A DNA stretch of 64,000 bases from Candidatus Latescibacterota bacterium. GTDB lineage: Bacteria > Latescibacterota > UBA2968 > GCA-2709665. Positions 4,569 to 43,116 of this stretch are shown here, piece by piece. The stretch lies in NCBI GenBank assembly GCA_965222075.1, contig OZ244937.1, positions 544,001 to 608,000 on the forward strand, in the 5' to 3' direction. The translations under genes and the position numbers were made by a program. A model generated the notes under the pieces. It saw only the letters and a list, made by a program, of their open reading frames with translations. It was not told where the DNA came from and made no database searches. Position 1 is the first letter of the stretch, and each line of letters begins with the position of its first letter.

Positions 4569-5280
4569 TTATTTGTTCGGTTCGCTACAAGCCGCATACC
4601 TGCATATCTCGGAAGTGTCTGGATTTGCTACGTTTCGTCCGTCCACCCACCGCCTGGCCGACTTCGACCCCGCACGCGCCTGCCTGCGCGGCGCACCGCG
4701 CTGCAGGCAGGCCGCATACTGCCATTCGGCCGCACTCGGCAAGCGATGAGAGGAGCCCGTCTCCTTCGACAGCCACTCCGCGTATGCCATGGCGTCGCCA
4801 ACACTCACGCAGACCACAGGGTGTTTGTCTGTTTGACCATATCCCGGACGTTTCCACGTTAGTCCAGACTTTTTCCGATAATAAGAGGTCTCAGGCGCCT
4901 GGCAACCATATTTAGGTTTGCGCTCCGCTTCGGTGTTATAGCGAGTCGCCTTGACGAACCTGCCGAACTCCGCTCTGGTCACTTCATACCTGGATATTGC
5001 GAAAGGCCCATGTTCACCCATTCGTAAGGCTCTACTCCCTCGTAGAGAAAACGACCGCTGGGAATCTTCACCATCTCAGGTCCCAGCCCGCCCGATTTCA
5101 GACGATCCCGCGGAACGACTGTTTTTGCCGCTTCAACTTGCCGCATCTCCAGGGCTTCCGTGTAATGCGCGCCCTCCTGTCCTGTCACCTTCAGATAGCT
5201 GTATATACGTTCTACAACGGCGCCGTACCCCGTTTCTTTCTGTCCATTCTCCAAATCACGATCCGCCTCTCGCATTAACA
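4569..5280 (-). pseudogene. FGE-sulfatase (SUMF1-like) domain gene, frameshifted and truncated
   Basis: GPEMVKIPSGRF in one frame; FAISRYEVT...HPVVCVS..DA.AY.EWLS..TG...RLPSAAEWQYA in another; C-terminal half missing; carries a 33-nt palindrome insertion. Confidence 0.8.
4679..4711. repeat. CCTGCCTGC...GCAGGCAGG palindromic element (33 nt, in frame)
   Basis: Removing it restores the canonical EWQYAARAG. Confidence 0.9.
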
Positions 5281-5630
5281 GGGTTGAAGTCGATTTTGAC
5301 GTCGGCCGTGGAACGCAGGATCGCATTGAACAAAAATCTGTTCATTTCATGAGCACCGCAGGACAAGAAAGCGGATTCAATAGTCTCGGGTTTGTTCTTA
5401 CCCAAGAGATAACTTTGTTCGACCACAAGATCAACCTCAACGCCGCGGAGACGCGCATCGATGATTGCCTCGGCGATCTCTCGATTGTCGATCTCCTGGA
5501 CGGCTATCATCAAATTTTGTCGTCTCTTCGCCTGCTTGATGAATGTGACAATTGGCTTGATAAGTGAATCGGGGGCAAACTGTTCCTTCGGCCCCATATA
5601 CAGATCTATATTGTCAACCGATATCGGCAT
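5256..5630 (-). pseudogene. N-terminal fragment of a phospholipase D-like protein
   Basis: IAVQEIDN.EIA.AIIDARLRGV.V.LV.E pattern; breaks after DFNP, before the expected HxK motif, at the junction with the FGE fragment. Confidence 0.6.
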
Positions 5631-5842
5631 GTCGAATCCTCCCAGTTTGCAACATATAGATTATCATCATGTCTGGATTTCATCCCAAAAGTAGAATGGG
5701 ACGCACTTTCGTTCAGCGGTGACTCCATTCTGTCGCCTAGTGGTCGATTTCGCAAGTTCGTATGAGTTTCTGTGGATTCCTTCTGAGTGATTCCGTGTGA
5801 TTCTGCGACGTTTTTCCTCATGTGGACTTCTGAAACTGACCA

Positions 5843-7102: not shown

Positions 7103-7485
7103 GGTTTCCTCACTTCCGAATTAAGGACAGAACGCTGACCGCCACATCTGCCAGCCGTGATAGAAACGCGTACGTTCACAAAGTCCATCTCGTCTTTCAA
7201 TAATTGCGCCATTCGGATGCTGTTTTGACACGTACCGCCAATAATAGGCGTGTTTTTCTGAAGCTTAGAAAGAAGCTGTGTGCACGTTCGGGTAACTCCA
7301 GAACGGTCAGATTCAGGGCTCCTGGAATATGGCTACCGATATATGACCTTCGCATATTCGTACGCGCGAATCGATGAATACGACAGCCTTTGAATCGACT
7401 CCCCGTTTGGCTTCCGCCAAATGCTGATTCTGTCTTCCACTGATCAGAACGGCACAACCGCACACTCCTGGAGCGAGGCTTAATC

Positions 7486-8775
7486 TTATTTGAGCATGAG
7501 CATCCGTTGCATACGGCGGAATTCCCCGACTTGCATTTCATACAGATAGATACCACTCGATACAGCCTGTCCAAGCGCATCACGTCCATCCCACACCACG
7601 CGATGCGCGCCAGCCACCATCAGTTCTCCCGAGACAAGGCGACGCACTTCCTGCCCCAGCACATTGTAGATGACCAGGTCCACCGGACCGGCCTGCGCAA
7701 GGGTAAACGCAATCGTCGTTGAGGGGTTGAACGGATTGGGGGCATTCTGCTCCAGGCTGTTTTCCAGCTGTGAAGCAGGCTTGCTCGCCTGTGTCGTCCC
7801 ATGCCCATTGGTCGCGATGCGATCCACCACGAGATTGTCGTCGGCAAGCGATAGATCATACAGAGACACAGGCAAGGCACCTGTGATCTCACTCCGTTTT
7901 TGAAATACAACCTGAGTCAGTGTGCCACTGCCCTTCGCGGCAGAGTAATCGCTTTTGAGCGCGGAGACCACCCGGAGCCGCCCATCTGCATCCTTGACAA
8001 GGCCTAATGCCGCATCTGCACCCTGCTGCTTCAGCAGTTCATTTTGTTGGGTGGATATTCCAGCATATTCGAGCACACGGGGATCATAATGTAGCACCAT
8101 CTCATATCCTATTAGCCCTGATGCTGCACTCACACTGGCATTTGCCACAATTACATGTCCTGACTTTGGTTCAAGTCATAGAGACTATTACCATAAATGA
8201 TGCGGTATCCGGTCATTTCGTTCACCTTGTTCCAATGGACTTTTACACCGTTTGAAGATGTTGGAATTGCGCTAATAATGACTGGAGGAACAATAGGGGT
8301 CCACAAAAATTGGAGTTCCGCCTGTTTAAGCTTAAATGCCCTCTGTGCATTACTTTCATCCGTGTTCTGGATACCAATAGCGAACCATCGGCTTGTGTAA
8401 GAGTCGAGGTCCCCGGCACGGTTTTTGACTGCCTCCTCAAGGGTATTGTTGGATATCGTATGCGAATCCCCCCATTGGCCATTTGTTTCGACTTCTTCAA
8501 ATATAGGTGTATCGCTCCCAATCTTACTCCATACAGTAGAGAGCGCCCCTGAATCACTACAATCTACATCAAAACCTGGATTGGTTCTCCCCTCATAAAA
8601 TCTCGCATTACATGTTGTGGAATCTCCACGGCCATCAATATGAATGGTCAAGTACACATCGGAAATTGTCTCAGCACTGATAGACGGTTGGACCACATTC
8701 AAATAAAATACGAGATGCCCGCGGCCTTGATAATGTGGAGAACTATCTTTTCCAATATCACTCGTAAAGCAGTTG
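7486..8775 (-). pseudogene. Remnant of a large secreted protein: partial FN3-like, cohesin-like and FlgD-Ig/C-terminal sorting domains
   Basis: LEQNAPNPFNPSTTIAF...IYNVLGQEVRRL...WDGRDALGQAVSSGIYLY; frame break near 8150; 5' end cut by the IS5 remnant. Confidence 0.7.
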
Positions 8776-8987
8776 GAAGCTGTTTTAAAAAGGTAGAGGC
8801 GTAAAGAAAAAAGTTGAAATTGCGTATTCATCTATCCAAATTCAGGTTGTCCCAAACCACCTGAAACGAAAGGATAAAGATGAATACGCAGAGGCAATAT
8901 CCAACAAATTTGACCGAAACACAATGGCAACTTCTCCTCACGCTGCTGCCCAAACCCAAATGGCGTTTCGGCTGTCCTGGTCGCCCA

Positions 8988-9017
8988 CCTGTCTGCGTGC
9001 GGACACGCACAGGCAGG
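8988..9017. repeat. Palindromic element (30 nt, in frame in the IS5 transposase)
   Basis: CCTGTCTGCGTGCGGACACGCACAGGCAGG; removal restores GRPPVNLRR. Confidence 0.9.
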
Positions 9018-9055
9018 CCGGTCAATCTACGCCGAGTGTTCAACGGCATTCTGTA

Positions 9056-9136
9056 CCTGTCTGCCTGCTTGCCTGTCTGCGTGCAACGCACAGGCAGGCG
9101 CGCTGCGCGCAGGCAAGCGTCCCTCGGACAGGCAGG
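9056..9136. repeat. Three nested 27-nt palindromic elements (81 nt)
   Basis: CCTGTCTG[CCTGCTTG[CCTGTCTGCGTGCAACGCACAGGCAGG]CGCGCTGCGCGCAGGCAAG]CGTCCCTCGGACAGGCAGG. Confidence 0.85.
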
Positions 9137-9320
9137 TGGGTATTTCAACAGATGGAGCCAACAAGGCATCTTCCAAAAGATCCAACAGGCACTCCACAGA
9201 AGGGAGCGACGCAGTCAGGGTCGCAAGCCTACCGCTTCAGCAGGCAGTATAGACTCTCAAAGCATTAAGACAGCAACACAAGGGAAAATAAAAGGTTACG
9301 ATTCTAGCAAGAAAATCAAT

Positions 9321-9341
9321 CCTGTGCCAACGGCAGACAGG
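9321..9341. repeat. Short variant palindromic element (21 nt)
   Basis: CCTGTGCCAACGGCAGACAGG at the junction of a large transposase deletion. Confidence 0.65.
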
Positions 9342-9463
9342 TACATTGCGATGATTCACCTTTTGATCAAGAGACTCGCTTCCAAATCTGAATTTTAAAA
9401 CGGCTTCTCAGATTTTACCGCTACCAGGCTAAAGGAGACAAATTTTACCAACATAACCGGAAT

Positions 9464-9478
9464 TGGTACGAATTTTGC
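9464..9478 (+). promoter_or_regulatory. Sigma54-type -24/-12 promoter motif
   Basis: TGGTAC-GAATT-TTGC matches TGGYAC-N5-TTGC. Confidence 0.45.
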
Positions 9479-9713
9479 CGCAGCAGTTGCAACCGGGGCT
9501 ACCTTTAGAGAATTTCAAGCAAGAGATTGGAATTTGACTGGGTTGCGAATGAGTAGTGGCGAAATGTTGTCAGGATATATAAAAGCCAGAATGCATGGCG
9601 CAAATATGCAGGGCGTTCGGATCAAGCAGATGGAATGGAGGGTGCGCGGCTCTGCATCGGTTGGATTACGTTTGTCTTACAATATTGATTTTTCAGGATT
9701 TATCTGGGGAGTT

Positions 9714-10073: not shown

Positions 10074-10214
10074 TGAACATGAAAAGCCGAATGGGACTGC
10101 GTTCGGCGACTCTGCCTGTTACGATGGGGGGCCTGGCAGGATGGAAGAGGCAAGGCTTCGTCGCAGGGGAAGGGAGTATGAACGAAAAAATATGTATTTC
10201 TTCGGGAGGAAACC

Positions 10215-11855
10215 GTGCGTAAGCGGATCGCGACTTTTGCCGTTATCGCCATCGCGCTTTTGATTCATCCGCTATCTCATTCTGGGGCAATTGTTTCGTC
10301 ACAATCCGACCTGCCTGCGCCGGATGCCCTGCCTGCGCCGAGTGCTCGGCAGGCAGGTCGGCAGGCAGGTCGGCAGGCAGGCCCGAGTCCCGACTTTAAT
10401 GGGGATGGTGTTGTGAATTTTAACGACTTTGTGCAGTTTGCGGGCGTGTTCGGTTCAAGCCGAGGGGGTGGGACGTATGAAGCGAAGTACGATCTGGATA
10501 GCGATGGCATGATTGGATTTTCAGATTTTGTGATCTTTGCCGGCAACTTCGGCAAAGCGGTGAACCGCCTGCCTCGTCGGCAGACAGGCATAAATGCCTT
10601 TGATTTTCCGCTGCGCGCCATCTCCGCCGCGGGGAATTGGGGAACCAATGCGCAAGTTGTAGCAGAGTGGGAAGCTGCCGGGAGGGTCGGACCTCTCATA
10701 CCTCCGGAGTATATTGAATGGCTGAAGAGCCTGCATGTGAACTGGATCTTACTCTCCGTCGCTCTGCATTACGAAGACAGCATGGACAGCACGGTTGAGC
10801 GTAACTATTCAGCGGATATAGATATCTCTACTTTTTCGGATAAAGCTCTCAGACAGCTTATACGGGAATTCAGAGTTCACGGAATTGACGTGTATCTGAC
10901 CCTCGCATTCGAAGCCCATGAGGCGGAAACAGCCGCACGCCCGGTACAAAGGTGGCAACTTGGAGACCCGGCACCACCTCACACGGGCGGCGTTCCTCCT
11001 GACGATCCCGACATCTTCGGATTGATATTACCACAATTTTGGCCGTGGCGTCCGGATCACCCGGATCACGAACGTTTTGTCGCCGAGTTCTGGGAGACCT
11101 ATACACAACAGGCGGTACATTTCGCCAGAATCGCAGAGGATGAGGGGGTGCGATTGTACTCGTTGGGCACGGAGACTGATCGGCTTTTTCGAACGCGTTC
11201 AGGAGGCTATATGACCAATGATTTCGGTCAGGAACTCAGATCAATGGTGGAGAGAGTGCGTGCCGTGTACAGTGGCGTGTTGACCTATGACACGCACTAT
11301 GACGTATTCACAGCGTCCGACTTCTATGGACCGGGGTCGGGAGCAGGTCATCTATGGAAAGATTTGGATCTCGACATCGTGGGGATCAGTGCATGGTTTC
11401 CACTGACGGACTCGCGTCCGTCAACGGTACTGAGCGTCGAAAGTTTCCAGGCGAGTTATAGGCAGATATTCCAAAACCAGCTTATTCCTCTTGCGGACAG
11501 AAATCCCGACCGGCCCATTGTGTTTACCGAATATGGTGCTATGGATGTGGTTGAAACACCCGAAAGACCAGGTGATACATCAGCGCAAAACCGGCGATTC
11601 GTATTTACCGATTCGAACGGCAACGGGCTGGATGACGGGCGGGAAACTCAGGCCAACATCTATGAGGCCTTAATCAACACCATGGCTCAGTACCCTGGGA
11701 TAGTAAATGGTGTCTTCTATTGGGATAATTGGATAACCAGCGACGAACTGTGGGCGGGATACTGGGCAGGTCGGCGTACTTATGCTATTCGTGACAAGCC
11801 GGCTGAGGAGGTCGTGCGGTCAGCTTATGGGTCCTACATAAAAACGAAAAATTGA
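10215..11855 (+). CDS. Secreted dockerin/EF-hand plus glycoside hydrolase TIM barrel (GH113-like)
   Basis: Signal peptide; DFNGDGVVNFNDF; SLGTETD, VRAVYSGVLTY, DIVGISAWFPL, IVFTEYG, DKPAEEVVR motifs. Confidence 0.8.
   Translation: MRKRIATFAVIAIALLIHPLSHSGAIVSSQSDLPAPDALPAPSARQAGRQAGRQAGPSPDFNGDGVVNFNDFVQFAGVFGSSRGGGTYEAKYDLDSDGMIGFSDFVIFAGNFGKAVNRLPRRQTGINAFDFPLRAISAAGNWGTNAQVVAEWEAAGRVGPLIPPEYIEWLKSLHVNWILLSVALHYEDSMDSTVERNYSADIDISTFSDKALRQLIREFRVHGIDVYLTLAFEAHEAETAARPVQRWQLGDPAPPHTGGVPPDDPDIFGLILPQFWPWRPDHPDHERFVAEFWETYTQQAVHFARIAEDEGVRLYSLGTETDRLFRTRSGGYMTNDFGQELRSMVERVRAVYSGVLTYDTHYDVFTASDFYGPGSGAGHLWKDLDLDIVGISAWFPLTDSRPSTVLSVESFQASYRQIFQNQLIPLADRNPDRPIVFTEYGAMDVVETPERPGDTSAQNRRFVFTDSNGNGLDDGRETQANIYEALINTMAQYPGIVNGVFYWDNWITSDELWAGYWAGRRTYAIRDKPAEEVVRSAYGSYIKTKN
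10310..10381. repeat. Nested palindromic elements (30+30 nt plus a 12-nt arm duplication), in frame
   Basis: Encodes LPAPDALPAPSARQAGRQAGRQAG between the signal peptide and the dockerin domain. Confidence 0.88.
10568..10588. repeat. Short variant palindromic element (21 nt, in frame)
   Basis: CCTGCCTCGTCGGCAGACAGG in the linker after the dockerin domain. Confidence 0.75.
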
Positions 11856-12107: not shown

Positions 12108-12815
12108 TCAAGGGGTAAGCGTCCGGGCAATACGGAAACCGATGACGGCTGAACCGTCCGCCGGAGGAGACCCTGTCGCGGTACGCGGCGCGGAGGTCCT
12201 CGGGTAGTCGAACCACGAGCCGCCGCGCAACACGCGACGCGCACAGTCGCCGCTCTCCCAGGCCGAGCCGTCCGCCGCCGCGCCTCGGTAACTGGCGTGC
12301 CAGCAGTCCTGCACCCACTCCCACACGTTGCCGTGCATGTCATGAAGTCCCCACGCGTTGGCACCGAACGCACCCACCGGCGCCGTCTTCTTACCGCCCC
12401 ACTGACTGCCGCAACCATCGCAATTGGCCCGGCCCTGGCCAATCTCATTCCCCCAGCTATACGCCGTCACCGACCCCGCACGCAACGCATACTCCCACTC
12501 CGCCTCGCTCGGCAAACGGTAACGCAGGTCCGTCTCCACCGACAGCCACTCCGTATACGCCACCGCATCCTCCCACGAAACGTTGATCACCGGACGCCGC
12601 CCACGGCCCCAGCCTGCGTCGTCCATCCGCTCTCTACTCGTCGCCGCCGTGAAGCGATCGTACTCCTCGAACGTCACCTCGTACTTCGACAGCGCGAACG
12701 ACCCAACCGTCACCTCGTGCACCGGCTTCTCGTCGCCAGCACAGTCTTTACCCGACACGCAGCCCATCCGAAAACGGCCCGCAGGAATCACCACCATCTC
12801 AGGCTCAAGCGGCAT
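12108..12815 (-). CDS. FGE-sulfatase/C-type-lectin-fold DGR-type target 2 (probably the split C-terminal part of the upstream kinase gene)
   Basis: PEMVVIPAGRFRMG, RLPSEAEWEYA, WGLHDMHGNVWEW, RVLRGGSW...GFRIARTLTP; 3' flank shared with target 1. Confidence 0.85.
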   Translation of the reverse strand: MPLEPEMVVIPAGRFRMGCVSGKDCAGDEKPVHEVTVGSFALSKYEVTFEEYDRFTAATSRERMDDAGWGRGRRPVINVSWEDAVAYTEWLSVETDLRYRLPSEAEWEYALRAGSVTAYSWGNEIGQGRANCDGCGSQWGGKKTAPVGAFGANAWGLHDMHGNVWEWVQDCWHASYRGAAADGSAWESGDCARRVLRGGSWFDYPRTSAPRTATGSPPADGSAVIGFRIARTLTP

Positions 12816-12850
12816 CTGTGGTCACCCTTGCTCTTTCGGCTTCTGTGCAG

Positions 12851-14146
12851 TCACTTGCCTTGCTCTGCTTTCGCTCTTGCTTCTTGCTCTTGACGACGCT
12901 CTTGCTCTTGACGACGCTGCTCAGCCTGTTCTTGACGACGCTGCTTTTCGGGTAGATATTCATATTCATAATAGTATAGCCCCCCAACAAGATAGTATAG
13001 CCCCCCAACAAGGAGAGCAACCATGCATACAACCGCCGCAAGCCACTTCCCTTTGCGCTTTTTGGGAGAACCCGACCAGGCGTCGTCACGCTGATGCACG
13101 GGTGGGGCATCTACTCTCTCTCGTTCCTGTGCAAACGTTGTGACTAATCCCCTGGCAAACAACGGCAACCGGGCGTCGTCACGCTGATGCACGGGTGGGG
13201 CATCTACTATCTCTCGTTCCTGTGCAGACGCTGTGACTGGCGGCGGAATGTTCACGCTGCCTGATGTTTCTCCAGACAGCGCAGGACGCCATGAAGCCAC
13301 ACTTTGCGGGCGGGCAGCCTTATCCATTTGCAGGGCTTTATCTATCGCAGAAAGAAACCCAGCACTCGCTTGACCCGCGCAGCGCTCAGACACTGGAATC
13401 AGCGGGTCCTGGATTACTCTTTCCGTGGCGTCGTCGGGCACTTGACCAGTCAACGCCCGGTAGCACACGGCCCCCAATGCGTAGATGTCTGTCCAGGGCC
13501 CTTGATCACCCCGACTCGAATACTGCTCTATCGGCGCGTAACCCGGCGTGATAATCGACGTAACAGAACGGCTCTTAGCACCGATCGCCTGACGCGCCGC
13601 ACCAAAGTCCAGCAACACAGGTGAATTGTCCTCATCCCGAATGATGATGTTGCCCGGCTTGATGTCACGGTGCAGGAAATCGGCACGATGTACCACCTCA
13701 AGGCCATCCAGGATCGGATACAGAATGGCCTTGAGTTCGGCTTCGCTCAGCGTCCCTTTGCGTGCGAGGAATGCCGATAAGGTTTCGCCCTCGGCATACT
13801 CCATCACGATATACGCCGTGCCATGCGCCTCAAAAAAGCGATACACTTTAATAATGTGGCGATGATCGAAGCGGGCTAAGGTGCGTGCTTCATCTAAGAA
13901 ACGACCCAGTCCCCACTCAAAATCATCTCGAAACTGGCTGGCTTGCGGGGCAACGCTGTTGTCGCCTGTACGGGTGGCGATATCGGCGGGCAGGTATTCC
14001 TTAATGGCCACGGCTTTGTCCAGGTTGTGGTCAAAGCCCAGATACGTCATCCCGAATCCGCCAAAGCCCAGCACCCTCACCAGTTCGTATTCCTGGAGAC
14101 GGTACCCCTGGGGCAGCGCGTTGAGGGGGTGGTGTGCGTCGTTCAT
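12851..14146 (-). CDS. Ser/Thr protein kinase with TM helix and coiled coil (paralog of 16579..18993, separated from its FGE domain by stops/frameshift)
   Basis: LGFGGFG, VAIKEY, HRDIKPGN, DFG, GYAPIE; start MNDAHH with RBS. Confidence 0.88.
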   Translation of the reverse strand: MNDAHHPLNALPQGYRLQEYELVRVLGFGGFGMTYLGFDHNLDKAVAIKEYLPADIATRTGDNSVAPQASQFRDDFEWGLGRFLDEARTLARFDHRHIIKVYRFFEAHGTAYIVMEYAEGETLSAFLARKGTLSEAELKAILYPILDGLEVVHRADFLHRDIKPGNIIIRDEDNSPVLLDFGAARQAIGAKSRSVTSIITPGYAPIEQYSSRGDQGPWTDIYALGAVCYRALTGQVPDDATERVIQDPLIPVSERCAGQASAGFLSAIDKALQMDKAARPQSVASWRPALSGETSGSVNIPPPVTASAQEREIVDAPPVHQRDDARLPLFARGLVTTFAQERERVDAPPVHQRDDAWSGSPKKRKGKWLAAVVCMVALLVGGLYYLVGGLYYYEYEYLPEKQRRQEQAEQRRQEQERRQEQEARAKAEQGK

Positions 14147-14188
14147 AGTGTTTCCCTCAAAGGGTTCTTCTCTTGTGTGTTCATCCCC

Positions 14189-14325
14189 GTGCGGACGAGG
14201 ACCTGCCTGCCGGGTCGCCTGCCTGCGCGGAGTTCTGCTCGGCAGGCAGGGCGCAGGCAGGCGTCCGCGCTCCCAGGTTGGCATGGCGCACTCAAACCAT
14301 GCGGGCGAGGACGCCCGCGTTCCCA
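14189..14325 (-). repeat. REP-like hairpin pair (GGGARCGCGGRCGTCCTCGYCCGC), one copy carrying a 60-nt nested insertion
   Basis: Same pair without the insertion at 19037-19113. Confidence 0.7.
14202..14261. repeat. Nested palindromic elements (27+33 nt)
   Basis: Absent at the paralogous position 19047/19048. Confidence 0.92.
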
Positions 14326-14331
14326 GGGAGG

Positions 14332-14495
14332 TTAATCTTTCGCTCTTTCTTCCGTATCCTGCCAATCGAACGCGTCGCCGCACAGGGGCACGAACCGGAG
14401 AACCGTTGCGCCAATGCTGATATGGCTATGCGCGGGCAGTTCCGTCGGAATGAGCACGGGCTGGTCGTTGAGGTAGGTCAGGTTGGTGCCGCTCC
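14332..14495 (-). pseudogene. Duplicated 3' fragment of the FHA-domain gene
   Basis: GTNLTYLNDQPVLIPTELPAHSHISIGATVLRFVPLCGDAFDW, paralogous to 19118-19280. Confidence 0.8.
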
Positions 14496-14497
14496 CT

Positions 14498-14827
14498 TCA
14501 TTCGTTGGGTTGAGCGGAAAGTTTAACTTCGATATTGCAGTGAAGTTTGTCTTGAAGAATGAAAAGAATATGCGTGAGATTATCCATTGTAGGATTTCCT
14601 TTTGACGACAACATACGATGGACACTCTTGCTGGGCTTATCGAGCTCTTTTGCCAATAATTCAAAACCAATCGTTGAATTTACGAGTTCCCGAAGAACAA
14701 GACGGGCAGTTTCAGAATCCCCGCTTAAAAAAGATGAAACGGCTTCATTCATTAGAGATGCAGCAAAATCAGGATCTCTTTCTGCCCTTTCTCTAATTGT
14801 CTGCCTGTAGTCGCGTGTCAGTGCCAT
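14498..14827 (-). CDS. Addiction-module antitoxin / HTH regulator (HI1420-like)
   Basis: [22 protein letters not shown]...[22 protein letters not shown]; GGAG RBS. Confidence 0.8.
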
Positions 14828-15001
14828 GTTTATCTCCTGCGATTTGTATTCTTTCATCATCTCTCCGGCTTTCGCAATATCCCTTTGTTGGCGGTCTTTT
14901 GTGCCGCCTCCCAGCAATACGATAAGGTCGTCACCATCCTGGAGTAAATAGATTCGATATCCTGGACCCCAATCAATTTTGTATTCTCCAAGCCCTGGCA
15001 A
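14828..15001 (-). pseudogene. C-terminal half of an addiction-module killer toxin (RelE/ParE-like, HI1419 type)
   Basis: [14 protein letters not shown]...[17 protein letters not shown]; N-terminus missing; reads in frame into the antitoxin. Confidence 0.75.
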
Positions 15002-16015
15002 TCAGGTCGTGGTGTCTGATTGTGTTGACGACTGCGTCGGGGCGTCTCGATTTTTTTCTTCTAGCGGTTCCCCACTGATTTTGCCTGTCTCGATTCGTCT
15101 TGATTGCTGACCGGGTGACGCTGTCAGCGCTTTCTTCAAGGCAGACCAAAGCCCTGACAGGCCTGTTTCCCGTCTTGATGGCTGAGTCTCTTCGCCCTGT
15201 TTGGATTTCTCCTGGGCGGTATCATCGGGAAGCGTTTCCACCCCACAATCGGCCTCCGGAGTGTAGAGCAACACGGTGGTATTGTCCTGGTGGGGATGTC
15301 CGACCTCTTCCACGGCATGGATGAGTGCCCCGGTGACTTCTTCAAGGGGTGCGTCCTGCATGTCCTGTAGAATACGCGCAATCTCCTCATCCTCAAGCGT
15401 CATTAAACCATCACTCGCCAATAACAGACGATCGCTTTTTCGAACGGCAACCGGTTGCGATGAAATGTCAATCAGGTGGATTTCATCGCCCATGACCGCA
15501 GACCGCAGGGCATGCCGTTTGGAATCGGTCGCGGCTTCTTCTGCGGTCATGCGCCCCGCCGCCACCAGGCTGGCGAGCACCGGCGCCATGGAGTGATCGG
15601 CATTGAGGCGGCGCAACTGCCCGTCACGGAACAACCACAAGGGGGAATCCCCCACACTGATCCAGTCGAGTCCGTGTTGTGAAATGACCGCTGCGACCAC
15701 GGTTGACCCCATGCCCTTCAGTTCAGGATTATCCTCGGTAGCCCGGGCAAGGGCATCATTGGCGGCGGTGAGGCAGGCGCGCAGACGATCCGGGACTGGC
15801 CCGTCCGTGCGGGGATAGGTCTCGACAAAGGTCTTGACAACGGTCCTGCTGGCCGTGTCGCCGCTGACGTGCCCGCCCATCCCATCGGCTAACAACAACA
15901 CCTCACTGCCGTCAATATCGGGATCGCCGCGCTCAATCAGGCCGTAATCGTCCTCCTGATATTCCCGCCCACCGGGAATTTGCCGCGCGGCGAATCGTCC
16001 TTCCAATCGGTTCAT
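15002..16015 (-). CDS. PP2C-family Ser/Thr phosphatase
   Basis: GGREYQED, LADGMGGH, GMGST, VGDS, DHS, LLASDGL, QDNTT. Confidence 0.93.
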   Translation of the reverse strand: MNRLEGRFAARQIPGGREYQEDDYGLIERGDPDIDGSEVLLLADGMGGHVSGDTASRTVVKTFVETYPRTDGPVPDRLRACLTAANDALARATEDNPELKGMGSTVVAAVISQHGLDWISVGDSPLWLFRDGQLRRLNADHSMAPVLASLVAAGRMTAEEAATDSKRHALRSAVMGDEIHLIDISSQPVAVRKSDRLLLASDGLMTLEDEEIARILQDMQDAPLEEVTGALIHAVEEVGHPHQDNTTVLLYTPEADCGVETLPDDTAQEKSKQGEETQPSRRETGLSGLWSALKKALTASPGQQSRRIETGKISGEPLEEKNRDAPTQSSTQSDTTT

Positions 16016-16082
16016 GGTGTTCCTCCAATACGGCGCAGGGCTGCTGCCGTCTCATTGGCATTGTATGCCATCACAAAGTGCA

Positions 16083-16126
16083 GCGGTGTCCCTTCCCCAC
16101 AGGCGCGAGGCAAAAGGGACACCGCC
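16083..16126 (-). other. GC-rich hairpin at the end of the spacer downstream of the TR
   Basis: GCGGTGTCCCTT ... AAGGGACACCGC inverted repeat. Confidence 0.55.
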
Positions 16127-16209
16127 CTTACCTCATCATGACCGTCCCTGGACGCTCCGTTGCACACCCGGCAACACCGTAGTGCTGCCCGTTCTGGCAG
16201 ACGAGCGTG

Positions 16210-16323
16210 CGGGCAACTCGAAAACCCCTATTGTTGTTCCGGTTTTCGATCCTGTTCCTGTTGCGATTGGCCGAGCGGAGGTTCCTCGGTTTGTTGTTCC
16301 ACGAACCGCCACGCAACACGCGC
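16210..16323 (-). mobile_element. DGR template repeat (TR), 114 nt
   Basis: Gap-free alignment to 16595-16708; 16 mismatches at TR adenines and 2 elsewhere; conceptual translation RVLRGGSWNNKPRNLRSANRNRNRIENRNNNRGFRVAR is rich in AAC/AAT. Confidence 0.95.
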
Positions 16324-16512
16324 TCAGGAGGGACGATCAGGCTTCCAAAGCGGATCGAACCACCCGCCTCGAAAGATCGCATGGCGCAACCGCCATGTAT
16401 TGGCATGATCACGCTCGACCGTCGGGACCAACCAGACGAGAAAACGAAAGTGCGACTCCAGCGCCGGGCCTTCCCGGATTGAGGCTACCCGCAACGGGCG
16501 GGTGGTTAGCAT
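16324..16512 (-). pseudogene. Fused avd-5' / reverse-transcriptase-3' stub (internal deletion of the DGR core)
   Basis: GPALESHFRFLVWLVPTVER (Avd-like N-terminus) joined at about 16410 to HANTWRLRHAIFRGGWFDP (DGR RT-like C-terminal tail, from recall); stop abuts the TR. Confidence 0.65.
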
Positions 16513-16527
16513 GCCCTGGCCGGATCG

Positions 16528-16550
16528 CCAGGAGGGCGAAGCCCCCCTGG
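16528..16550. promoter_or_regulatory. DGR target-recognition hairpin downstream of VR/IMH
   Basis: CCAGGAGGGC-GAA-GCCCCCCTGG about 28 nt past the target stop codon; GRA triloop as in characterised DGRs. Confidence 0.75.
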
Positions 16551-16578
16551 ACCCCCCAGGAGGTAAAGAGGTGAAGAT

Positions 16579-32270: not shown

Positions 32271-34103
32271 CTATTTCAATGCCCCCAGTTCCACCTGGAC
32301 GGCCCACGACGATGCCACACCCGTTTGGGTACGTTTGAGCGAATACCGGAGTTTTAAACGGATGTGCCGCCCGCCCCAGCCGAGGCGGACCCCGCCGGTC
32401 TGTCCCCGGCCGGTGAGGACCTGGAGGCGGCTGCCGCCCCAGACGTCGGGTTCAAAGGTGTAGATGCGGGCGTCGTAGGCGGTGATGTGGAACAGCGCCG
32501 CCCAGAGGGCCAGTTCCGGTCCGGGTCTGCGGCCGATGTTGAAGTTGATGCCGGCGGCCCGGCCGTGCCCCCGGCGGGATGGGGATGCGGCCCGGGCGCC
32601 TTCGATCCACGCCTTGAGGCGTGCCCTGCCCCGTCGGTGGGTGAGGCGGATTTGGGCACGCCGGCGGATACGGGGGCCGATCTGGCCTGAGGCGCGTACG
32701 GTTTTCCGCTGCGAGCCCAGGACAAGGCCCAGGGTGAGGCCCTGGAAGGGGCGGTGGGTGAAGTTGAGGCTGAACCGTTCGCCCCGGCCGGGGAGGGGGA
32801 GTTGACCGGTGCGCCGGATGCGGCCGTGCCGGTCCAGCCCCGCCTCTATCCGGGTTTTTCTGCGCGGCTTCCAGACCGCGCCGACAAAGAGGCCCCATTC
32901 GTTTTGAGGGGGGGTGCCGTAGGCGGAGGTGGCCGTGCCCCGAAGGGTCTGAAAACGGGGGCCGTAGCGCCGGGCGAGGGTAAGCAGGCGCAGGCCTTTG
33001 AATTGCACGGTGGAACCGGCCACCCAGGCCTGGTCTTGCCCCCCGGCAACTTCCCCGAAGAGGGTGAGGCGGTGGAGGCGCAGGTTCCAGTCGATGCCCA
33101 GGAGGCGGTGGTTCGGGTTGGTCTGGGCAAGGGGCGGGGTGAAGGCGGCCTGCAGGGCTGTGGTTGCGATTTCGCCAAAGGGGAGGTTGCAGTTGAGACG
33201 GAGTGCTGTGAGCTGCTCTTTGAGGGCGTCTTTTCGGTCCCGCTGGGTCTGGGTGACGTGCTGACCGCCCTCCCGGACACGGGCGTGTCCGGTCTCGTCA
33301 ACCGCCGCGTCCCAGGCGGTTCCGGAGAGGAGGAGGGTCCAGGTGAGACGACGGATTCGGCCTTCTGCGAAGAGCCCCCGGAGCGCTCCGTTTTCGGTGC
33401 TGGAGCGGTATCCGATTCGGCGGGTGCGGCGGGGTCTGGCCCAGGCCAGTCCGGTAGAGGCGCGGGTCTGTCGGCTGAAGATGAGGCCCTGGCCGAAGCC
33501 GGGACGGAAGTCGCCCAGGAGCAGGCGCGTTGTGCCCGGGACTTGGGAGACAGCGATGTATCCGCTCCAGAAGTCGACCAGGCCGGTCTCTCCGGGGTCC
33601 CGTTCGGTGAGGAGCGCGCCTGCTATCAGGTTGGCGATTCCGACCTCGGTGCGCTGGGCAATCCGCAGCTGGTTCCAGCGCTCCGGATGCTCCGGGGGGC
33701 GGGTGAGGCGCCACCGGGTCCGGCCGGATATCCGATGCCGTGCTGAGATGGAGAGGTAGGGACGGACCGCGTCCAGGGTTTCAGGGGAGATGCCCGGGAC
33801 GCGGAGGAGGTCGTCGATGCGGCGGAAGGGGCCTGCGCGATTTCGATAGGTTTCGATCTGTCGGGCGGTTTGGGCGGAGAGCCAGGGGAGGGCCTGCAGG
33901 TCACCTGCGGCGGCGCGGTTGAGATCGAGGCGAAGCCCTTCGAGGTCCTTCAGGAGGGCCTGATAGGCCTGGGCGTCTTCCGGGTCGGCAGCCGGGTATT
34001 CCTGGGCGCCTGGGGAGCCGATTGCTGCAAAGACAAAGATGAGGGCTGTCGTGAAAAGCCTTTTCAATCTGTACAGGGCCGGGTGAAAGAAAATGTCCCT
34101 CAT
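32271..34103 (-). CDS. Helix-hairpin-helix (ComEA-like) domain plus outer-membrane beta-rich protein
   Basis: LDLNRA....LQALPWLS...I..YR...GPF..IDDLLRVPGI; GDFRPGFGQGL; YDARIY.FE. Confidence 0.75.
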   Translation of the reverse strand: MRDIFFHPALYRLKRLFTTALIFVFAAIGSPGAQEYPAADPEDAQAYQALLKDLEGLRLDLNRAAAGDLQALPWLSAQTARQIETYRNRAGPFRRIDDLLRVPGISPETLDAVRPYLSISARHRISGRTRWRLTRPPEHPERWNQLRIAQRTEVGIANLIAGALLTERDPGETGLVDFWSGYIAVSQVPGTTRLLLGDFRPGFGQGLIFSRQTRASTGLAWARPRRTRRIGYRSSTENGALRGLFAEGRIRRLTWTLLLSGTAWDAAVDETGHARVREGGQHVTQTQRDRKDALKEQLTALRLNCNLPFGEIATTALQAAFTPPLAQTNPNHRLLGIDWNLRLHRLTLFGEVAGGQDQAWVAGSTVQFKGLRLLTLARRYGPRFQTLRGTATSAYGTPPQNEWGLFVGAVWKPRRKTRIEAGLDRHGRIRRTGQLPLPGRGERFSLNFTHRPFQGLTLGLVLGSQRKTVRASGQIGPRIRRRAQIRLTHRRGRARLKAWIEGARAASPSRRGHGRAAGINFNIGRRPGPELALWAALFHITAYDARIYTFEPDVWGGSRLQVLTGRGQTGGVRLGWGGRHIRLKLRYSLKRTQTGVASSWAVQVELGALK

Positions 34104-34234
34104 GGTCTGGTCTCCTTCCGTGGCGGGGTGCATTCAGTACGTTGGGTATCAAGGGGTTATCTCCTTTTGTGGGGAAGAGGACGGTTTGTCCACCAGGGCG
34201 TGTGCAAGCCGGATGCCAGCAGAAGGGAACGACC

Positions 34235-34288: not shown

Positions 34289-34321
34289 CCTGCCTGCCGC
34301 GACGCTCGCGGCGCAGGCAGG
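34289..34321. repeat. Palindromic element (33 nt, intergenic)
   Basis: CCTGCCTGCCGCGACGCTCGCGGCGCAGGCAGG. Confidence 0.9.
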
Positions 34322-34330: not shown

Positions 34331-36253
34331 CTACTGGTTGTCCACTGTGTCCTCGTCGGGCAGGGGGATAATTTTCCCCTTGCGAATGGTCAGCAAGTAC
34401 ATCCAGGCATTCTCGCGGTTGGCTTTGCCAAAGGCGATCTGGCCCGTTGCCGAGGGTATTCCGGAGAGGGATTCCAGCCTTTCGCGGAGTGTTTCCCTTG
34501 TCGTCCCACCGGCGGTGATGGCGCGCAGGACCGCCAGCATGGCATCGTAGCTGAGGGCTGCCACGATGCTCTGGTCTCTGCCAAACCGGGACCGAAAGGA
34601 ATCCACGAAGTTCCGGACGGATAAGTGTTTGCTCTGGTCGTGGTACCTGGCGACAAAGATCGCGCCTTCCACATAATCTCCGCCGTCGCGCGCCACTTCG
34701 GGGAAGTTCCACCCGTCGCTGCCCAGCAGCTGCGCCTGGATCCGGTGGAAGGCGACCTGGGGCGCTATGAGGAGCACGTCTTCACGCTCGCCGGCGATAA
34801 GGAAGCCGTCCAGGGTCTCCACGGGTTCCGGCTGGACAGTATCCGGATCGACCGGTACGGGCGGGGGTGGGGCCACGCGGATGCCGGCCAGGAGAAGCGA
34901 GTCGATTTCGCCGGCAAAGGTTTCGGGGATGCGGAGGGCCAGGCCGGCTTCTCGAATGCGTTCGAACTGCCCCCGGTAGTCGGTGGTTTCGGGTGCGTAC
35001 CATTCCTGCACGATCACTTCTGCGCCCAGTTCCTCGGCGCGGGCGGTGAATTCTCTGGTGATCCGGTCGCCGTAGGCGTCCCGGGTGGCGAGGGTGACCA
35101 GGGTTCGCAGGCCCAGCTTTCGGACGGCATAGTCGGCAATGCGCCGGCCCTGCGCGCCGGGCGTGGCGTTCATCTGGAAGATATAGGGGCTGATGGAGGC
35201 GATGCGGTCTTCGGAGGCTGTGGGGGCGATGAGGGGGATCTTGCGGTCGCCGGCCAAGAAGGCCATGGGGGTGGTTTCCTGGCTGGTGAGGGCGCCGATG
35301 ATGGCGATGACATCGTAGTGGTCGATGAGGCGCTTCGTGGCCAGCCCGGCCCGGATGACATCGCCTTCCGAATCTTCGATGACGAGGCCGACCTGGTCGC
35401 CGGAGGCGAGAGGGTTTTGCTCCCGCGCCAGCAGGATGCCATCCCTCAAATCCAGGCCCAGGGGGGTTTCCATGGGGCCGATAATACCCACTTTAAATCG
35501 GGCATGGGCGGGTTCGAGCGGCATTTCCGGGGGCAGGGCGTCTTTTTTTCCCGGGGCGGTTACCCCCTCTTTGGGCCGGGGCTTGAGTGTCTGTTGCGCG
35601 AGCGACGCCAGGCGTCCGTTGGGATACTGCTCCAGAAAGAGGGCCATTTTACGGATGCTCTCTTCCGGGCGGCCCAGTTTGCCGGGCCAGCGGGCCTGCC
35701 CGAAGGCGACGGCTTCTTCGACGATGGCCCGCCCGAAATCCGATTTGAGACGTGCGATGTCCTGGTCGGTGAGCCGGCCGGTGCCCGCCATTTGCCCGAG
35801 CCGATCCGCAGCCCGGGTTTTGAGACGGATGTCTGCTTTGCCGGTGAGGAGGCGGGCGTACTGTGCCGCAGCGCTGTAGGTCTGGCCCTGGTGAAAGTAG
35901 CAGTCTCCGATAACGAGATCGGCTTCGAGGAGATACCGGCTGGAGGGGAAGTGTTCGTAGAGTTCGTAGGCGGCGGCGATGGCCAGGTTGTATTTTTTGC
36001 GTTTGTAGTGGGATTTGGCCAGCATCAGTCTGGAGGCCGATGTGCGCTGGTTGGGGGGGTAGTGTTCGATGAGGTCCTGGAACCCCTGCCGAGCTTCCGG
36101 ATAGTTCCCGTGGATGTACCGGGTAAGCGCCCGCTGGAAGAGGGTTTCGGCCTCTCTGTTGAGGGTAAGCCCACCGGGTGGGGGAGAAGCAGCGTTGGCA
36201 GCGAAGGTGAGGAGGCCCATACAGAGGCAGAAGAGAGGGATTCGAGCCTTCAA
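34331..36253 (-). CDS. TPR (BamD-like) plus periplasmic-binding-protein type 1 (LppC/LpoA-like) protein
   Basis: Signal peptide, TPR helices, AIIGALTS, LLGSDGW, ALSYDAM, ATGQIAF. Confidence 0.8.
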   Translation of the reverse strand: MKARIPLFCLCMGLLTFAANAASPPPGGLTLNREAETLFQRALTRYIHGNYPEARQGFQDLIEHYPPNQRTSASRLMLAKSHYKRKKYNLAIAAAYELYEHFPSSRYLLEADLVIGDCYFHQGQTYSAAAQYARLLTGKADIRLKTRAADRLGQMAGTGRLTDQDIARLKSDFGRAIVEEAVAFGQARWPGKLGRPEESIRKMALFLEQYPNGRLASLAQQTLKPRPKEGVTAPGKKDALPPEMPLEPAHARFKVGIIGPMETPLGLDLRDGILLAREQNPLASGDQVGLVIEDSEGDVIRAGLATKRLIDHYDVIAIIGALTSQETTPMAFLAGDRKIPLIAPTASEDRIASISPYIFQMNATPGAQGRRIADYAVRKLGLRTLVTLATRDAYGDRITREFTARAEELGAEVIVQEWYAPETTDYRGQFERIREAGLALRIPETFAGEIDSLLLAGIRVAPPPPVPVDPDTVQPEPVETLDGFLIAGEREDVLLIAPQVAFHRIQAQLLGSDGWNFPEVARDGGDYVEGAIFVARYHDQSKHLSVRNFVDSFRSRFGRDQSIVAALSYDAMLAVLRAITAGGTTRETLRERLESLSGIPSATGQIAFGKANRENAWMYLLTIRKGKIIPLPDEDTVDNQ

Positions 36254-39103: not shown

Positions 39104-39141
39104 TGGAAATTCTGCAATGGGTTGGGTGGGCGGGATTAGGG

Positions 39142-39170
39142 TTGACACCCCTGTGAATTTGTGGTAGATT
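39142..39170 (+). promoter_or_regulatory. Sigma70-like promoter
   Basis: TTGACA-17-TAGATT. Confidence 0.55.
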
Positions 39171-39226
39171 GTTCGCGGTATTTCAGGTTCCGGAGAGGGG
39201 CGTTTCGGATTTTGGAAGGGGATATT

Positions 39227-40189: not shown

Positions 40190-40241
40190 AAAAGGTGTGG
40201 TGAAGCCCTGCCCCCTTTCTACACCAGAGGAGGTAAACGCG

Positions 40242-41216: not shown

Positions 41217-41218
41217 CC

Positions 41219-42079
41219 ATGAGAACGGCTGTGATTCTACTTGTGATTCTGATTCTGCTCGGGATTGCCGTTGATGCCGTATTTTTTATCGTGGATGAAC
41301 GGGAGCAGGTGGTGGTGACCCGGCTGGGAGAGCCGAAGCGTATTATACTGACCTCCGGAATCAGGTGGAAAGTGCCCTTTATCGAGCAGATCCACGTCTT
41401 CGATGATCGTCTACTTTTCAGCGATGCCGATCCGGCGCCCATTTATACAATGGACAAGAAAAATCTGATTGTGGACAATTTCGCCCGGTGGCGCATTGCA
41501 GATCCGCTCAAGTTCCTGCGGTCCGTACAGACGATTCGAGGCGCCCAGTCCCGCTTAGATGATATTATCTATGCTGCGGTGCGAGAGGAGCTGGGGCGGC
41601 GCGCCCTTTCAGAGATCGTCTCGGGCAACCGGCGGGAGATTATGCAGCGGGTCACGAAGCGGTCCCGGCAGGATGCCGAGGAGCTGGGCGTCGAGATTAT
41701 CGACGTGCGGATCAAGCGCGCCGACTTGCCGGAGGAGAACAAAAAGAATGTGTTCGATCGGATGCGGGCGGAGCGGTCCCGGCAGGCCAAGGAGTACCGC
41801 GCCGAAGGAGAGGAGATGGCGCTGAAGATCCGCGCGGAGACCGACCTGGAGGTGACGCGGCTCAAGTCCGGGGCATTTCAGAAATCGCAGTTGATCCGGG
41901 GGGAGGGAGACGCCGAGGCCCTGCGGATCTATGCCGATGCGTTCCTGCGAGATCCCAAGTTCTACGAATTTCAGCGCACCCTGGAGACCTACGAAAAGAC
42001 GCTGGGTGAGAATACTGTGGTTGTGCTGCCGTTGAGCATCGAGTTCTTCAAGTATCTCGGAACCGGAAAGAAAAAATGA
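41219..42079 (+). CDS. hflC: FtsH modulator HflC
   Basis: DKKNLIVD, DVRIKRADLP, RMRAER, FYEFQRTLE. Confidence 0.95.
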   Translation: MRTAVILLVILILLGIAVDAVFFIVDEREQVVVTRLGEPKRIILTSGIRWKVPFIEQIHVFDDRLLFSDADPAPIYTMDKKNLIVDNFARWRIADPLKFLRSVQTIRGAQSRLDDIIYAAVREELGRRALSEIVSGNRREIMQRVTKRSRQDAEELGVEIIDVRIKRADLPEENKKNVFDRMRAERSRQAKEYRAEGEEMALKIRAETDLEVTRLKSGAFQKSQLIRGEGDAEALRIYADAFLRDPKFYEFQRTLETYEKTLGENTVVVLPLSIEFFKYLGTGKKK

Positions 42080-43116
42080 GGACAGGGCATTCCGGCTGGT
42101 GGCGTGACCTGCCTGCGCCGTGCCTTGCTCGGCAGGCAGGGCTGCGTCTGCTGGATCTGCCCCTTGCGGGGAGGCAGAGACAGGCCGGGATGGTTCTGAT
42201 CTTTTGCCTTGTCATTTTCCTTCCTTTCAGCCTCTCTGCCCAGGGATGGTCCGAGCACCGGGCCGATGGCCTTCTGCTCCGGTTTCAGGAGCCCGACCGC
42301 GCGCTGGCCGGTGCGCTGTTAGGCGATTTGATTGCAGGGCGGGCGGAGATCGCGCGCAGGCTGGGGGGGGTCGCCCAGGTCCCCATAGCCGTGTACCTGG
42401 CCCCTTCGGAGGAGGTATTCAGGGCGCTGACGGGGGGACGAATTCCCCACTGGGGGGTGGGTTGCGCGTTTCCCGAAGCGGGGATCGTCGTGCTGCGGAA
42501 GCTGCCGGGACAGCCCGATGCGCTTCTACTTACCGCCCGGCATGAGATCTGCCACATTTTGCTGCACCACGCTGTGCCGGGAAGGGTGCCGGTCTGGTTC
42601 AACGAAGGGGTGGCGATGTGGGGCGCCCAGGAGTGGCGGTTGCGTCAGAGCGCCGAGGTCTTCTACGCGATGTTTTCGGGAGGGCTCGTTCCGCTTTCCG
42701 AGATTGAGGACGTGCTCAGCTTTTCATCGTCCCGGGCGCACCTGGCCTATACCGAGAGCCTCCTGGCCGTGGTCTATCTGATCCACTTGGGGGGGCCCGA
42801 TGCGGTGGGCCGGATGATTGCGGACCTGAGTTCCGGCACCCCGTTTGACGTTGCCCTCTACCGTGTAACCGGCTACACGCCCCGGCGGTTTGAAAAGATG
42901 TGGGCCGATTACGTGTGGGGGCGGTTCAGTCTGATATCGCTGATGATTGCTCCGGAGGCGCTCTGGTTTTACCTGGCGCTTCTCTTTTTGGCCGCCTATG
43001 TGGCCGTGCGCTACCGCAACCGGCGTACCGTGCGGCGCTGGGAAGACGAGGGCCCTGCAGAGGTCCTGCCCCTGCGGTTGCGCCTTCAGGTCCACCGGCG
43101 GGAGGACCGGCTGTGA
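42076..43116 (+). CDS. Peptidase MA-like metallohydrolase, membrane anchored
   Basis: HEICH...VPVWFNEG; C-terminal TM; start uncertain. Confidence 0.8.
   Translation: MRTGHSGWWRDLPAPCLARQAGLRLLDLPLAGRQRQAGMVLIFCLVIFLPFSLSAQGWSEHRADGLLLRFQEPDRALAGALLGDLIAGRAEIARRLGGVAQVPIAVYLAPSEEVFRALTGGRIPHWGVGCAFPEAGIVVLRKLPGQPDALLLTARHEICHILLHHAVPGRVPVWFNEGVAMWGAQEWRLRQSAEVFYAMFSGGLVPLSEIEDVLSFSSSRAHLAYTESLLAVVYLIHLGGPDAVGRMIADLSSGTPFDVALYRVTGYTPRRFEKMWADYVWGRFSLISLMIAPEALWFYLALLFLAAYVAVRYRNRRTVRRWEDEGPAEVLPLRLRLQVHRREDRL
42108..42140. repeat. Palindromic element (33 nt, in frame)
   Basis: CCTGCCTGCGCCGTGCCTTGCTCGGCAGGCAGG. Confidence 0.88.

Follow-up and report, generated by a model that had tools for sequence, protein, structure and literature searches.

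Introduction

Short palindromic repeats lying inside bacterial genes have been described before. Passages of the text of Di Nocera et al. 2013 (PMC3733652) place repetitive extragenic palindromes (REPs) with a GTAG or CGTC tag inside genes of Opitutus terrae, Rickettsia conorii (RPE-4 and RPE-6), Thauera and others, often in uvrA, uvrD and recBCD; the same passages describe CGTC REPs as lacking a dedicated transposase and leave open how they move. Rickettsia palindromic elements (RPEs) appear, in the relevant passages of PMC10969869 (on the RPEs of Ogata et al. 2000) and PMC3184786, as long elements inserted in frame. Here, we analyse short palindromic units with the ends CCTGYCTGC ... GCAGRCAGG, several of which interrupt genes in frame in a 64,000-nt stretch of DNA (the window: contig OZ244937.1, positions 544001-608000, Candidatus Latescibacterota bacterium, assembly GCA_965222075.1), and follow them through the whole genome (G000: closed, a metagenome-derived single contig of 5.36 Mb, 59.3% G+C) and its relatives. 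The units are probably mobile DNA hairpins, very small and non-autonomous, that together form a REP-like family recently active in this lineage.

Two further kinds of element are relevant. Elements of the IS200/IS605 group of insertion sequences (IS) insert without target duplication, in an orientation set by a short motif, and have bulged sub-terminal hairpins in single-stranded DNA. The GC clusters and "byp" elements of yeast mitochondria are very short, GC-rich mobile palindromes tolerated in coding sequence; the ribosome skips byps, whose length does not have to be divisible by three.

Results

A family of short palindromic units

The pattern with which the window had first been described (CCTGYC N5-30 GRCAGG) matched it 11 times, against a mean of 0.70 in shuffled windows (maximum 3), and 0 of 100 shuffles reached 11. 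An earlier reading of the window from its letters alone (the original prediction) had listed nine loci, and all of them are present. For the genome we used a stricter pattern (CCTG[CT]CTG...CAG[GA]CAGG) and kept minimal units from overlapping matches: 272 overlapping matches resolved into 239 minimal units with 121 distinct sequences. The reversed pattern had 0 matches in G000, compared with 248 for the real one. Wherever flanks were shared, as in copies within larger repeats or adjacent to each other, the strict units were collapsed, leaving 180 independent events. Rfam recognised no family in the window at gathering score.

The units consist of conserved 8-9-nt inverted arms (CCTGYCTGC ... 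GCAGRCAGG) around a variable, mostly self-complementary core. Class A ends form a 9-bp stem (CCTGCCTGC/GCAGGCAGG); in class B (107 units) one position is T/G (CCTGTCTGC...ACAGGCAGG), so that these units have an orientation. Cores differ between sub-families and mostly pair. Folded as single-stranded DNA, the common 33-mers pair over 7 bp in an outer stem and over 6 bp in an inner stem, which are separated by a 2-3-nt bulge and closed by a 4-nt loop, with a calculated minimum free energy of about -14 to -15.6 kcal/mol (-6.7 to -15.6 for the common variants overall). The outer-stem pairing is kept among the 33-nt units and the inner stem fits no single register; hence, no claim of covariation is made.

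Since G000 is metagenome-derived and the relaxed pattern yields false positives (at window position 55416, at 1998638 and 1709133 of the genome, and at a terminator in L246), hairpin or adapter chimeras made during sequencing or assembly, or chance matches, were considered as the origin of the units. This origin is effectively refuted: the same units occupy the same sites in three other public runs from different studies, the family is present in many independent genomes, shuffles and reversed-pattern controls give about zero, and units lie in frame within long conserved genes.

The commonest 33-nt unit is also contained in a larger repeat of approximately 250-300 nt with 11 copies in G000 (for instance at 3042239, which corresponds to L128 ~1500-1950, and also in L131 at 7202-7463), which terminates in a T-rich hairpin (CTTCTTTTTCGGCCTTTTTCTTGG...) and had no match in an Rfam search at E<=1. 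A similar repeat of ~200-260 nt is multi-copy in the same-genus relative G001, where it stands at many contig ends.

Precise empty sites and recent activity

At least ten sites filled in G000 are precisely empty in G001 (91-96% DNA identity) and/or in G004, a relative of the same family (~77-88%), an outcome that answers the filled/empty comparison proposed in the original prediction. The DNA missing from the relatives amounts to 39 nt at 1816880; 60 nt at 1823843 (a 27-nt unit plus a nested 33-nt unit); 36 nt at 1826664, where the relative reads GTGTA^TCGG and thus already has both flank bases; 36 nt at 1989356; 45 nt at 1990367; 36 nt at 1234911; 27 nt at 1244684; and 33 nt at 1703225. Two inserts of 33 and 21 nt in PurL are missing from one relative of 93% and another of 83% identity, and without both of them the proteins are colinear again, NAGDTHDP standing opposite DATDAHDP. 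At 2055206 a decayed 31-mer corresponds to a net gain of 28 nt near the C-terminus, and the window unit at 42108 is within an insertion of ~69 nt relative to G004, G001 having a larger deletion there. No target-site duplication was found in any filled/empty pair compared, which extends to the genome what had been noticed in the window. None of the G000 sites alignable to G001 was filled in G001 (1990253 was too diverged to read); in the reverse check, one G001 unit was common to both genomes, another was common apart from a nested difference of 15 nt, and at several sites the two genomes have different units.

Recent activity was analysed by comparing contigs of four public runs (X1, X3, X6 and X9; several studies) over 19.9 kb. 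The X9 contig, with 20 differences over 6.5 kb, joins position 2880 to position 2920, exactly without the 39-nt unit 1816880-1816918, which is present without any gap in the contigs of X1, X3 and X6. As G001 is empty at 1816880, the event is an insertion, gained inside a population more than 99% identical. The contigs of the compared runs stop at the nested unit near L131 9856-9892 and have no bearing on its presence or absence there. The family is recently active in this lineage. The original prediction of a very small, non-autonomous, in-frame element whose enzyme lies outside the window agrees with the empty sites, the polymorphism between strains and the patchy copy number described below, as well as with the finding of copies in each of the three codon phases, in either orientation and also outside coding DNA.

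Two sigma-54 response-regulator paralogs of G000 (498904-500409 and 2829124-2831133) carry the same units at the same positions, indicating that their duplication is later than the insertions.

Length classes and reading frame

Genes were called with our own codon-usage scorer of open reading frames (ORFs), a rough procedure that produced 3850 ORFs covering 87% of G000; ORFs with a coding score of at least 40 are referred to as confident and those below as weaker. The most abundant lengths among the 239 units were 33 nt (93 units), 27 nt (50), 30 nt (19), 25 nt (17), 36 nt (13) and 19 nt (8). Lengths divisible by three were found in 189/239 strict units (86/97 inside gene calls, 103/142 outside) and in 143 of the 180 flank-collapsed events (~79%): 58/63 in confident ORFs, 18/23 in weaker ORFs and 67/94 outside ORF calls. 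The classes of 25 and 19 nt do exist and are almost confined to DNA outside gene calls (14/17 and 7/8, respectively), as expected of the residue left by purifying selection against frameshifts. Divisibility by three is consequently a strong bias in the coding and non-coding compartments, not a law. The rule first proposed, that lengths are always a multiple of three even between genes, holds in the window and fails genome-wide, where 50/239 strict units depart from it, mostly outside genes. The relaxed expression suggested together with that rule for a length histogram proved unsuitable, giving in G000 a spurious peak at 29 nt because the non-greedy match ends at the inner GGCAGG of ...GGCAGGCAGG.

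Stop codons are rare in the units: 107 of the 121 distinct sequences are stop-free in all six frames. The mean number of open frames was 5.88, compared with 5.40 +/- 0.06 when cores were shuffled and 5.11 +/- 0.07 when whole units were shuffled, an effect whose size is approximate given that these shuffles do not keep palindromy.

Target preference

The base before the unit (-1) is a purine in 222/239 units, so the purine 5' flank noticed in the window holds genome-wide, and the base after it (+1) is a pyrimidine in 207/239. The commonest -1/+1 pairs were GC (85), AT (61), AC (23) and GT (21), complementary beyond what independence predicts. Empty sites retain both flank bases plus an adjacent TCGG/CCGA-like motif, indicating that these bases belong to the target and not to the unit. 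Position -4 is C in 84/107 class-B units, without a mirror-image signal on the right side; the flank consensus is C-N-S-R on the left and Y-S on the right, and CGR^ or ^YCG stands at the junction in most filled/empty pairs. The one-sided C together with these junctions indicates that recognition is oriented. The loops of some variants contain the target motif themselves, which accounts for the nested composites at window positions 10310 and 14202 and at genome position 1823843.

Distribution among relatives, viruses and other phyla

Counts in 31 relatives ranged from 0 to 292: 292 in G009, 164 in G003, 133 in G021 (which belongs to another family), 106 in G002 and 66 in G018, down to 24 in the sister genome G001, 3 in G004 and 0 in G006. 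The G001 count is a lower bound, because that assembly is fragmented and units are often at contig ends. A survey of the phylum found at least one match in 78/168 genomes, high counts being restricted to the family of the window (including G071 with 258, G070 with 139 and G072 with 89) and to G021. Identical 33-mers are common to genera whose housekeeping DNA is ~68% identical, and the dominant variant differs from genome to genome. This distribution looks like repeated bursts, horizontal spread, or both.

A 33-nt unit was also found in 16 IMG/VR viral contigs, including the exact variant of window position 34289. In one of them (L216, 1933-4356, 71% G+C) this variant is inside a fused prohead-protease/capsid ORF, and homologous contigs have the 33-mer at the identical place. 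A Nitrospira genome, from another phylum, had 16 matches, mostly a 20-nt palindrome made of the arms only. A 43-nt query against PLSDB plasmids and INPHARED phages returned chance-level matches only (best E 0.2). Genome G117, of the same phylum as G000, had 55 matches to the reversed control and 0 to the real pattern, probably a different palindromic family.

Host genes and position of the units in them

The interrupted genes of G000 include those encoding a double UvrA-like protein and a UvrD-like helicase, with two units each, two resistance-nodulation-division (RND) pumps, PurL (also two units), FeoB, the R subunit of a type I restriction system (HsdR) and a histidine kinase, among others. 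Of 63 events in confident ORFs, 38 were more than 40 residues from both ends, 16 were near the predicted start and 9 near the stop. The codon phase of the 58 in-frame events is skewed and predicts three kinds of peptide: LPA..QAG, free of cysteine (30 events); PAC..GR (18); and CL..RQ (10). According to Pfam coordinates some inserts are in linkers, such as that between the AAA+ lid and the helix-turn-helix of a sigma-54 activator, and others within domains: UvrA_inter has 120 residues for 108 profile positions, 12 more than the profile. Compared with PDB structures, a CusA-like pump has ~28 extra residues around the insertion, exceeding the 9 that the unit encodes. Clusters of units were found in decayed transposase genes (UPF0236, DDE_Tnp_1, DDE_3, DDE_Tnp_4), in the duplicated sigma-54 activators and between genes.

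In G001, the C-terminal tail of a gene for TnpB (IS605 OrfB-type; contig C47, ~7155-8354, L235/L236) is interrupted in frame by a 33-nt unit; thus, the element also invades genes of other mobile elements.

Coding DNA is under-populated, 86 of the 180 events being in ORF calls that cover 87% of the genome, which suggests that most genic insertions are probably lost. The same depletion could be read differently, together with the strict conservation of the arms around varying cores and the existence of 19-20-nt arm-only palindromes (among them the 16 Nitrospira matches): the units might be signals useful to the host, of a protein-binding, structural or uptake type, comparable to REPs and bacterial interspersed mosaic elements (BIMEs), to DNA uptake sequences (DUS/USS) or to HIP1-like sites, spread by selection or biased gene conversion, their in-frame copies being tolerated by-products. 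We regard this as improbable. Units of 27-39 nt stand complete at sites unrelated to each other, the same sites being empty in close relatives, and point mutation with biased uptake would not yield whole units at once; close relatives manage with 0-4 copies; single arms outside strict units (111 and 115) are only about twice as frequent as reversed control words (45 and 60); orientation relative to the strand of the host gene is unbiased (11:9 and 22:19); and copies accumulate in dead IS elements.

Search for the mobilising enzyme

Of the IS200-like Y1 genes of G000, one is intact (2071880-2072323), with end hairpins that are not related to the units, and one is broken. In addition, an intact RAYT-like gene (3242105-3242870; HUH motif HVHIV, Y motif ESYDRSIR), which is below the Pfam Y1_Tnp E-value limit, was found using the RAYTs of relatives. 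Its flanks (3241494-3241630 and 3242838-3242975) are direct blocks of ~135 nt with three GTAG REPs each (GTAGCGCAAAC...), a separate family with only 7 copies in G000. The RAYT genes of relatives (G003, G001, G018 and G015; L225-L230, L233) are flanked by inverted hairpins GCAGACA-TTCC-TGTCTGC, with 0 copies in G000; loop plus stem spells the class-B 9-mers CCTGTCTGC/GCAGACAGG with their order swapped, a resemblance to the class-B arms.

Four candidates were rejected. RAYT or IS200 as the demonstrated cognate enzyme fails on the unrelated flanking hairpins and on the Y1 counts given below. TnpB (PF07282) has 0 matches in G000 and matches in 3/22 genomes of the family, the G001 copy beside two units being an insertion victim. 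A parent IS with matching ends was sought in 74 repeated intervals of at least 500 nt (self-megablast), whose listed ends, compared by eye, did not match. Clusters of units, taken as possible sites flanking an enzyme, mark decayed transposase genes and hold no enzyme gene.

Several of these results weigh against a family of mobile hairpins. No enzyme linked to the family was found in G000 or in the relatives surveyed: the Y1, TnpB and parent-IS searches in G000 led to none, and the GTAG family beside its RAYT gene is small and separate. The enzyme expected in the original prediction to accompany the element did not do so among HUH/RAYT candidates, Y1_Tnp matches not tracking copy number in 31 genomes (G004 had 32 matches and 3 units, G021 had 133 units and only broken or partial matches). 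To the same side belong the shared ancestry of equal-length units, by which the bias towards multiples of three may be overstated as independent evidence; the occurrence of 25-, 19- and 20-nt classes; the 16/63 confident intragenic events at most 40 residues from the predicted start, which may precede the true start; and the orientation of units by replichore, weakly skewed in class B (41:30 vs 12:24) and not skewed in class A (28:30 vs 21:27).

A mobile family served by something other than an HUH enzyme (a recombinase or topoisomerase of the host acting on extruded hairpins, copying by reverse transcriptase, or a phage or plasmid enzyme outside the assembly) has a chance not far short of even. 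It would fit the finding that units flank no RAYT or IS200 gene of G000, the lack of tracking by Y1, including the broken or partial matches of the high-copy G021, and the members in viral contigs, which, as in the prohead protease-capsid ORF, show phage traffic. On the other hand, no candidate of this kind was found, oriented and duplication-free insertion of a bulged hairpin would be a hallmark of IS200/IS605, and among the proteins encoded by G000 are an IS200-like and a RAYT-like one, both single and intact. We tentatively propose an HUH (Y1) transposase like those of IS200 and RAYT, acting in trans, on the resemblance of the bulged hairpin, the absence of duplication and the oriented short target motif to the IS200/IS605 signature; it is somewhat doubtful, and otherwise another enzyme, or one of the host, would be responsible.

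Copies in the window

A 33-nt unit at 4679-4711 (CCTGCCTGC-15-GCAGGCAGG) is in frame in a fragment of an ORF similar to the FGE-sulfatase domain (4569-5021, minus strand; Pfam PF03781); deleting it from ...EWQYAA[CLQRGAPRRQA]RAG... regains the motif EWQYAARAG, as had been predicted. The ORF 8880-9398 (plus strand; weak DUF4096 match), an N-terminal part of an IS4/5-type transposase, has a 30-nt unit at 8988-9017 (arms CCTGTCTG...CAGGCAGG), which encodes PVCVRTRTGR and does interrupt GRPP[..]VNLRR in the way initially reported. A composite cluster follows at 9056-9136, in which a 27-nt unit (9072-9098) is nested in a longer palindromic composite of the same family; its 54-nt composite type was found again elsewhere in G000. 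Near the 3' end of the same ORF, a 21-nt unit with a decayed left arm (9321-9341) is a decayed copy of the 25-nt variant, and its right flank (tacattgcgatgattcacc...) is common to the copy at genome position 3018895.

At 10310-10381, in the N-terminal part of a GH113-like ORF, the loop of a 30-nt unit (10310-10327 plus 10358-10369) holds a second 30-nt unit (10328-10357), and a partial repeat of 12 nt comes after them, reaching 10381; the outer unit is a variant with 4 copies in G000. At 10568-10588 there is a 21-nt unit whose left arm is a variant (CCTGCCTC...CAGACAGG). The nested composite 14202-14261, a 33-nt unit (14218-14250) inside a 27-nt unit, keeps the frame of a Ser/Thr kinase ORF (12851-14383, minus strand), in whose N-terminal region it lies; the same composite of 60 nt recurs at genome position 1823843, and G001 and G004 are without it there. 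The 33-nt unit 34289-34321 lies between the minus-strand genes 32271-34133 and 34331-36253, and its 33-mer is the one found identical in the IMG/VR viral contigs. A peptidase-MA ORF (42076-43116, plus strand) has another 33-nt unit (42108-42140) in its N-terminal region, and a degenerate second palindrome comes after this unit. The pattern match 55416-55450 has no palindromic core and is probably not a family member.

G+C is lowered to 49-53% between 4 and 12 kb of the window, where decayed transposase fragments are present. The part from 12108 to 18993 holds several genes with Ser/Thr kinase and FGE-sulfatase domains, one of them (16579-18993) a kinase-FGE fusion, adjoining PP2C, FHA and trypsin-FHA genes.

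Discussion

How the units may move and persist

A mobile hairpin would account for these observations as follows. The arms and core would form a bulged stem-loop in single-stranded DNA, and movement would proceed through such a single-stranded hairpin intermediate. Insertion would take place precisely between a pre-existing purine and a pre-existing pyrimidine, usually by a CG-containing motif (left flank approximately C-N-S-R), without duplication, and insertion into the loops of other units would produce nested composites. Stop-free units of 27, 30, 33 or 36 nt would add 9-12 residues (LPA..QAG, PAC..GR or CL..RQ) and leave the gene unbroken; as the gene is extended rather than broken, a large share of copies could persist in genes, housekeeping genes included. 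The added peptides are predicted from the reading frames of the host genes.

The length in multiples of three and the lack of stop codons would result from selection on the element lineage; the element's own adaptation to the reading frame is plausible but unproven. In a stronger form, a codon-adapted micro-transposon, selection at the level of the element would have fixed the length rule and purged the stops, and an enzyme neither RAYT nor IS200, possibly borne by host or phage, would move it. We consider this form unlikely. If it is true, coding DNA (~87% of the genome) becomes habitable for the element, and an enzyme recognising the CCTGYCTGC/GCAGRCAGG stem would explain why the same arms occur across genera, in viral contigs and in Nitrospira.

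Significance

Short palindromes are usually treated as intergenic; here at least one fifth of the independent insertions are well inside confident genes, and one insertion is polymorphic between strains ~0.3% apart. The family offers natural experiments on the tolerance of proteins to random insertions of 9-12 residues, on a selfish element adapting to the genetic code through its length and lack of stop codons, and on REP-type movement without an adjoining cognate transposase, the matter raised for CGTC REPs in the passages of PMC3733652. From a practical point of view, the units break short-read assemblies, as at the contig ends of G001, and, the phylum being uncultured, they can lead gene callers and alignments of orthologs astray.

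Comparison with known systems

The units resemble REPs in being GC-rich imperfect palindromes of 20-40 nt with a stable stem-loop and tens to hundreds of dispersed copies, in having sub-families with compensating stem changes, and in being very uneven among related genomes. With the intragenic REPs in the text of PMC3733652 they have in common that some copies are in genes and that uvrA and uvrD recur as hosts, and with the CGTC REPs described there the absence of a dedicated transposase. The background given in the original prediction, in which REPs are mostly extragenic and in-frame palindromes much longer, was incomplete in this respect: passages of PMC3733652 describe short intragenic REPs, and their being in print lowers the novelty of the present family.

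The differences from REPs are several. The present family has no GTAG or CGTC tag, and its CCTG string is absent from the text of PMC3733652, figures being outside this check; conservation lies in the stem itself, in its outer 8-9 bp; most units stand alone or nested in loops, unlike the head-to-head or spaced inverted pairs of REPINs and BIMEs; they do not flank the RAYT-like gene of G000 as the REPs of REPtrons would; and they are not mainly extragenic, a far greater share being inside genes than in REPs (86/180 events in ORF calls, 63 of them confident and at least 38/180 internal, by rough calls). Their length classes step by three, and the text passages of PMC3733652, figures and tables aside, have no such step.

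Like the Rickettsia palindromic elements, as far as passages on these go, the family is a selfish palindrome found in frame in unrelated genes with its peptide tolerated (58/63 events divisible by three here). Elements of the RPE-1 type are ~100-150 bp long and belong to an alphaproteobacterial intracellular parasite, unlike the present units, which are 19-39 nt long and come from a Latescibacterota lineage, free-living or host-associated. Their ends would also differ from those of the present units. The short RPE-4 and RPE-6 are CGTC-tagged REPs according to the text of PMC3733652.

The likeness to IS200/IS605 is in duplication-free, oriented insertion beside a pre-existing motif (the empty sites; C at -4 in 84/107); IS200/IS605 elements have two different hairpin ends and hundreds of bases, and the present element is one hairpin. 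Compared with the organellar byps, the length in multiples of three and the open frames would argue for plain translation. [quoted passage not shown]

Full-text literature searches turned up neither a family of the CCTGYCTGC type nor REPs quantised in steps of three, although a related consensus could stand in the figures or supplements of PMC3733652. Against this background three features look new: the type of end; the three-base length steps, combined with frames open in all six readings, among copies in coding as well as non-coding DNA; and, for an uncultured phylum, the large proportion of copies internal to genes.

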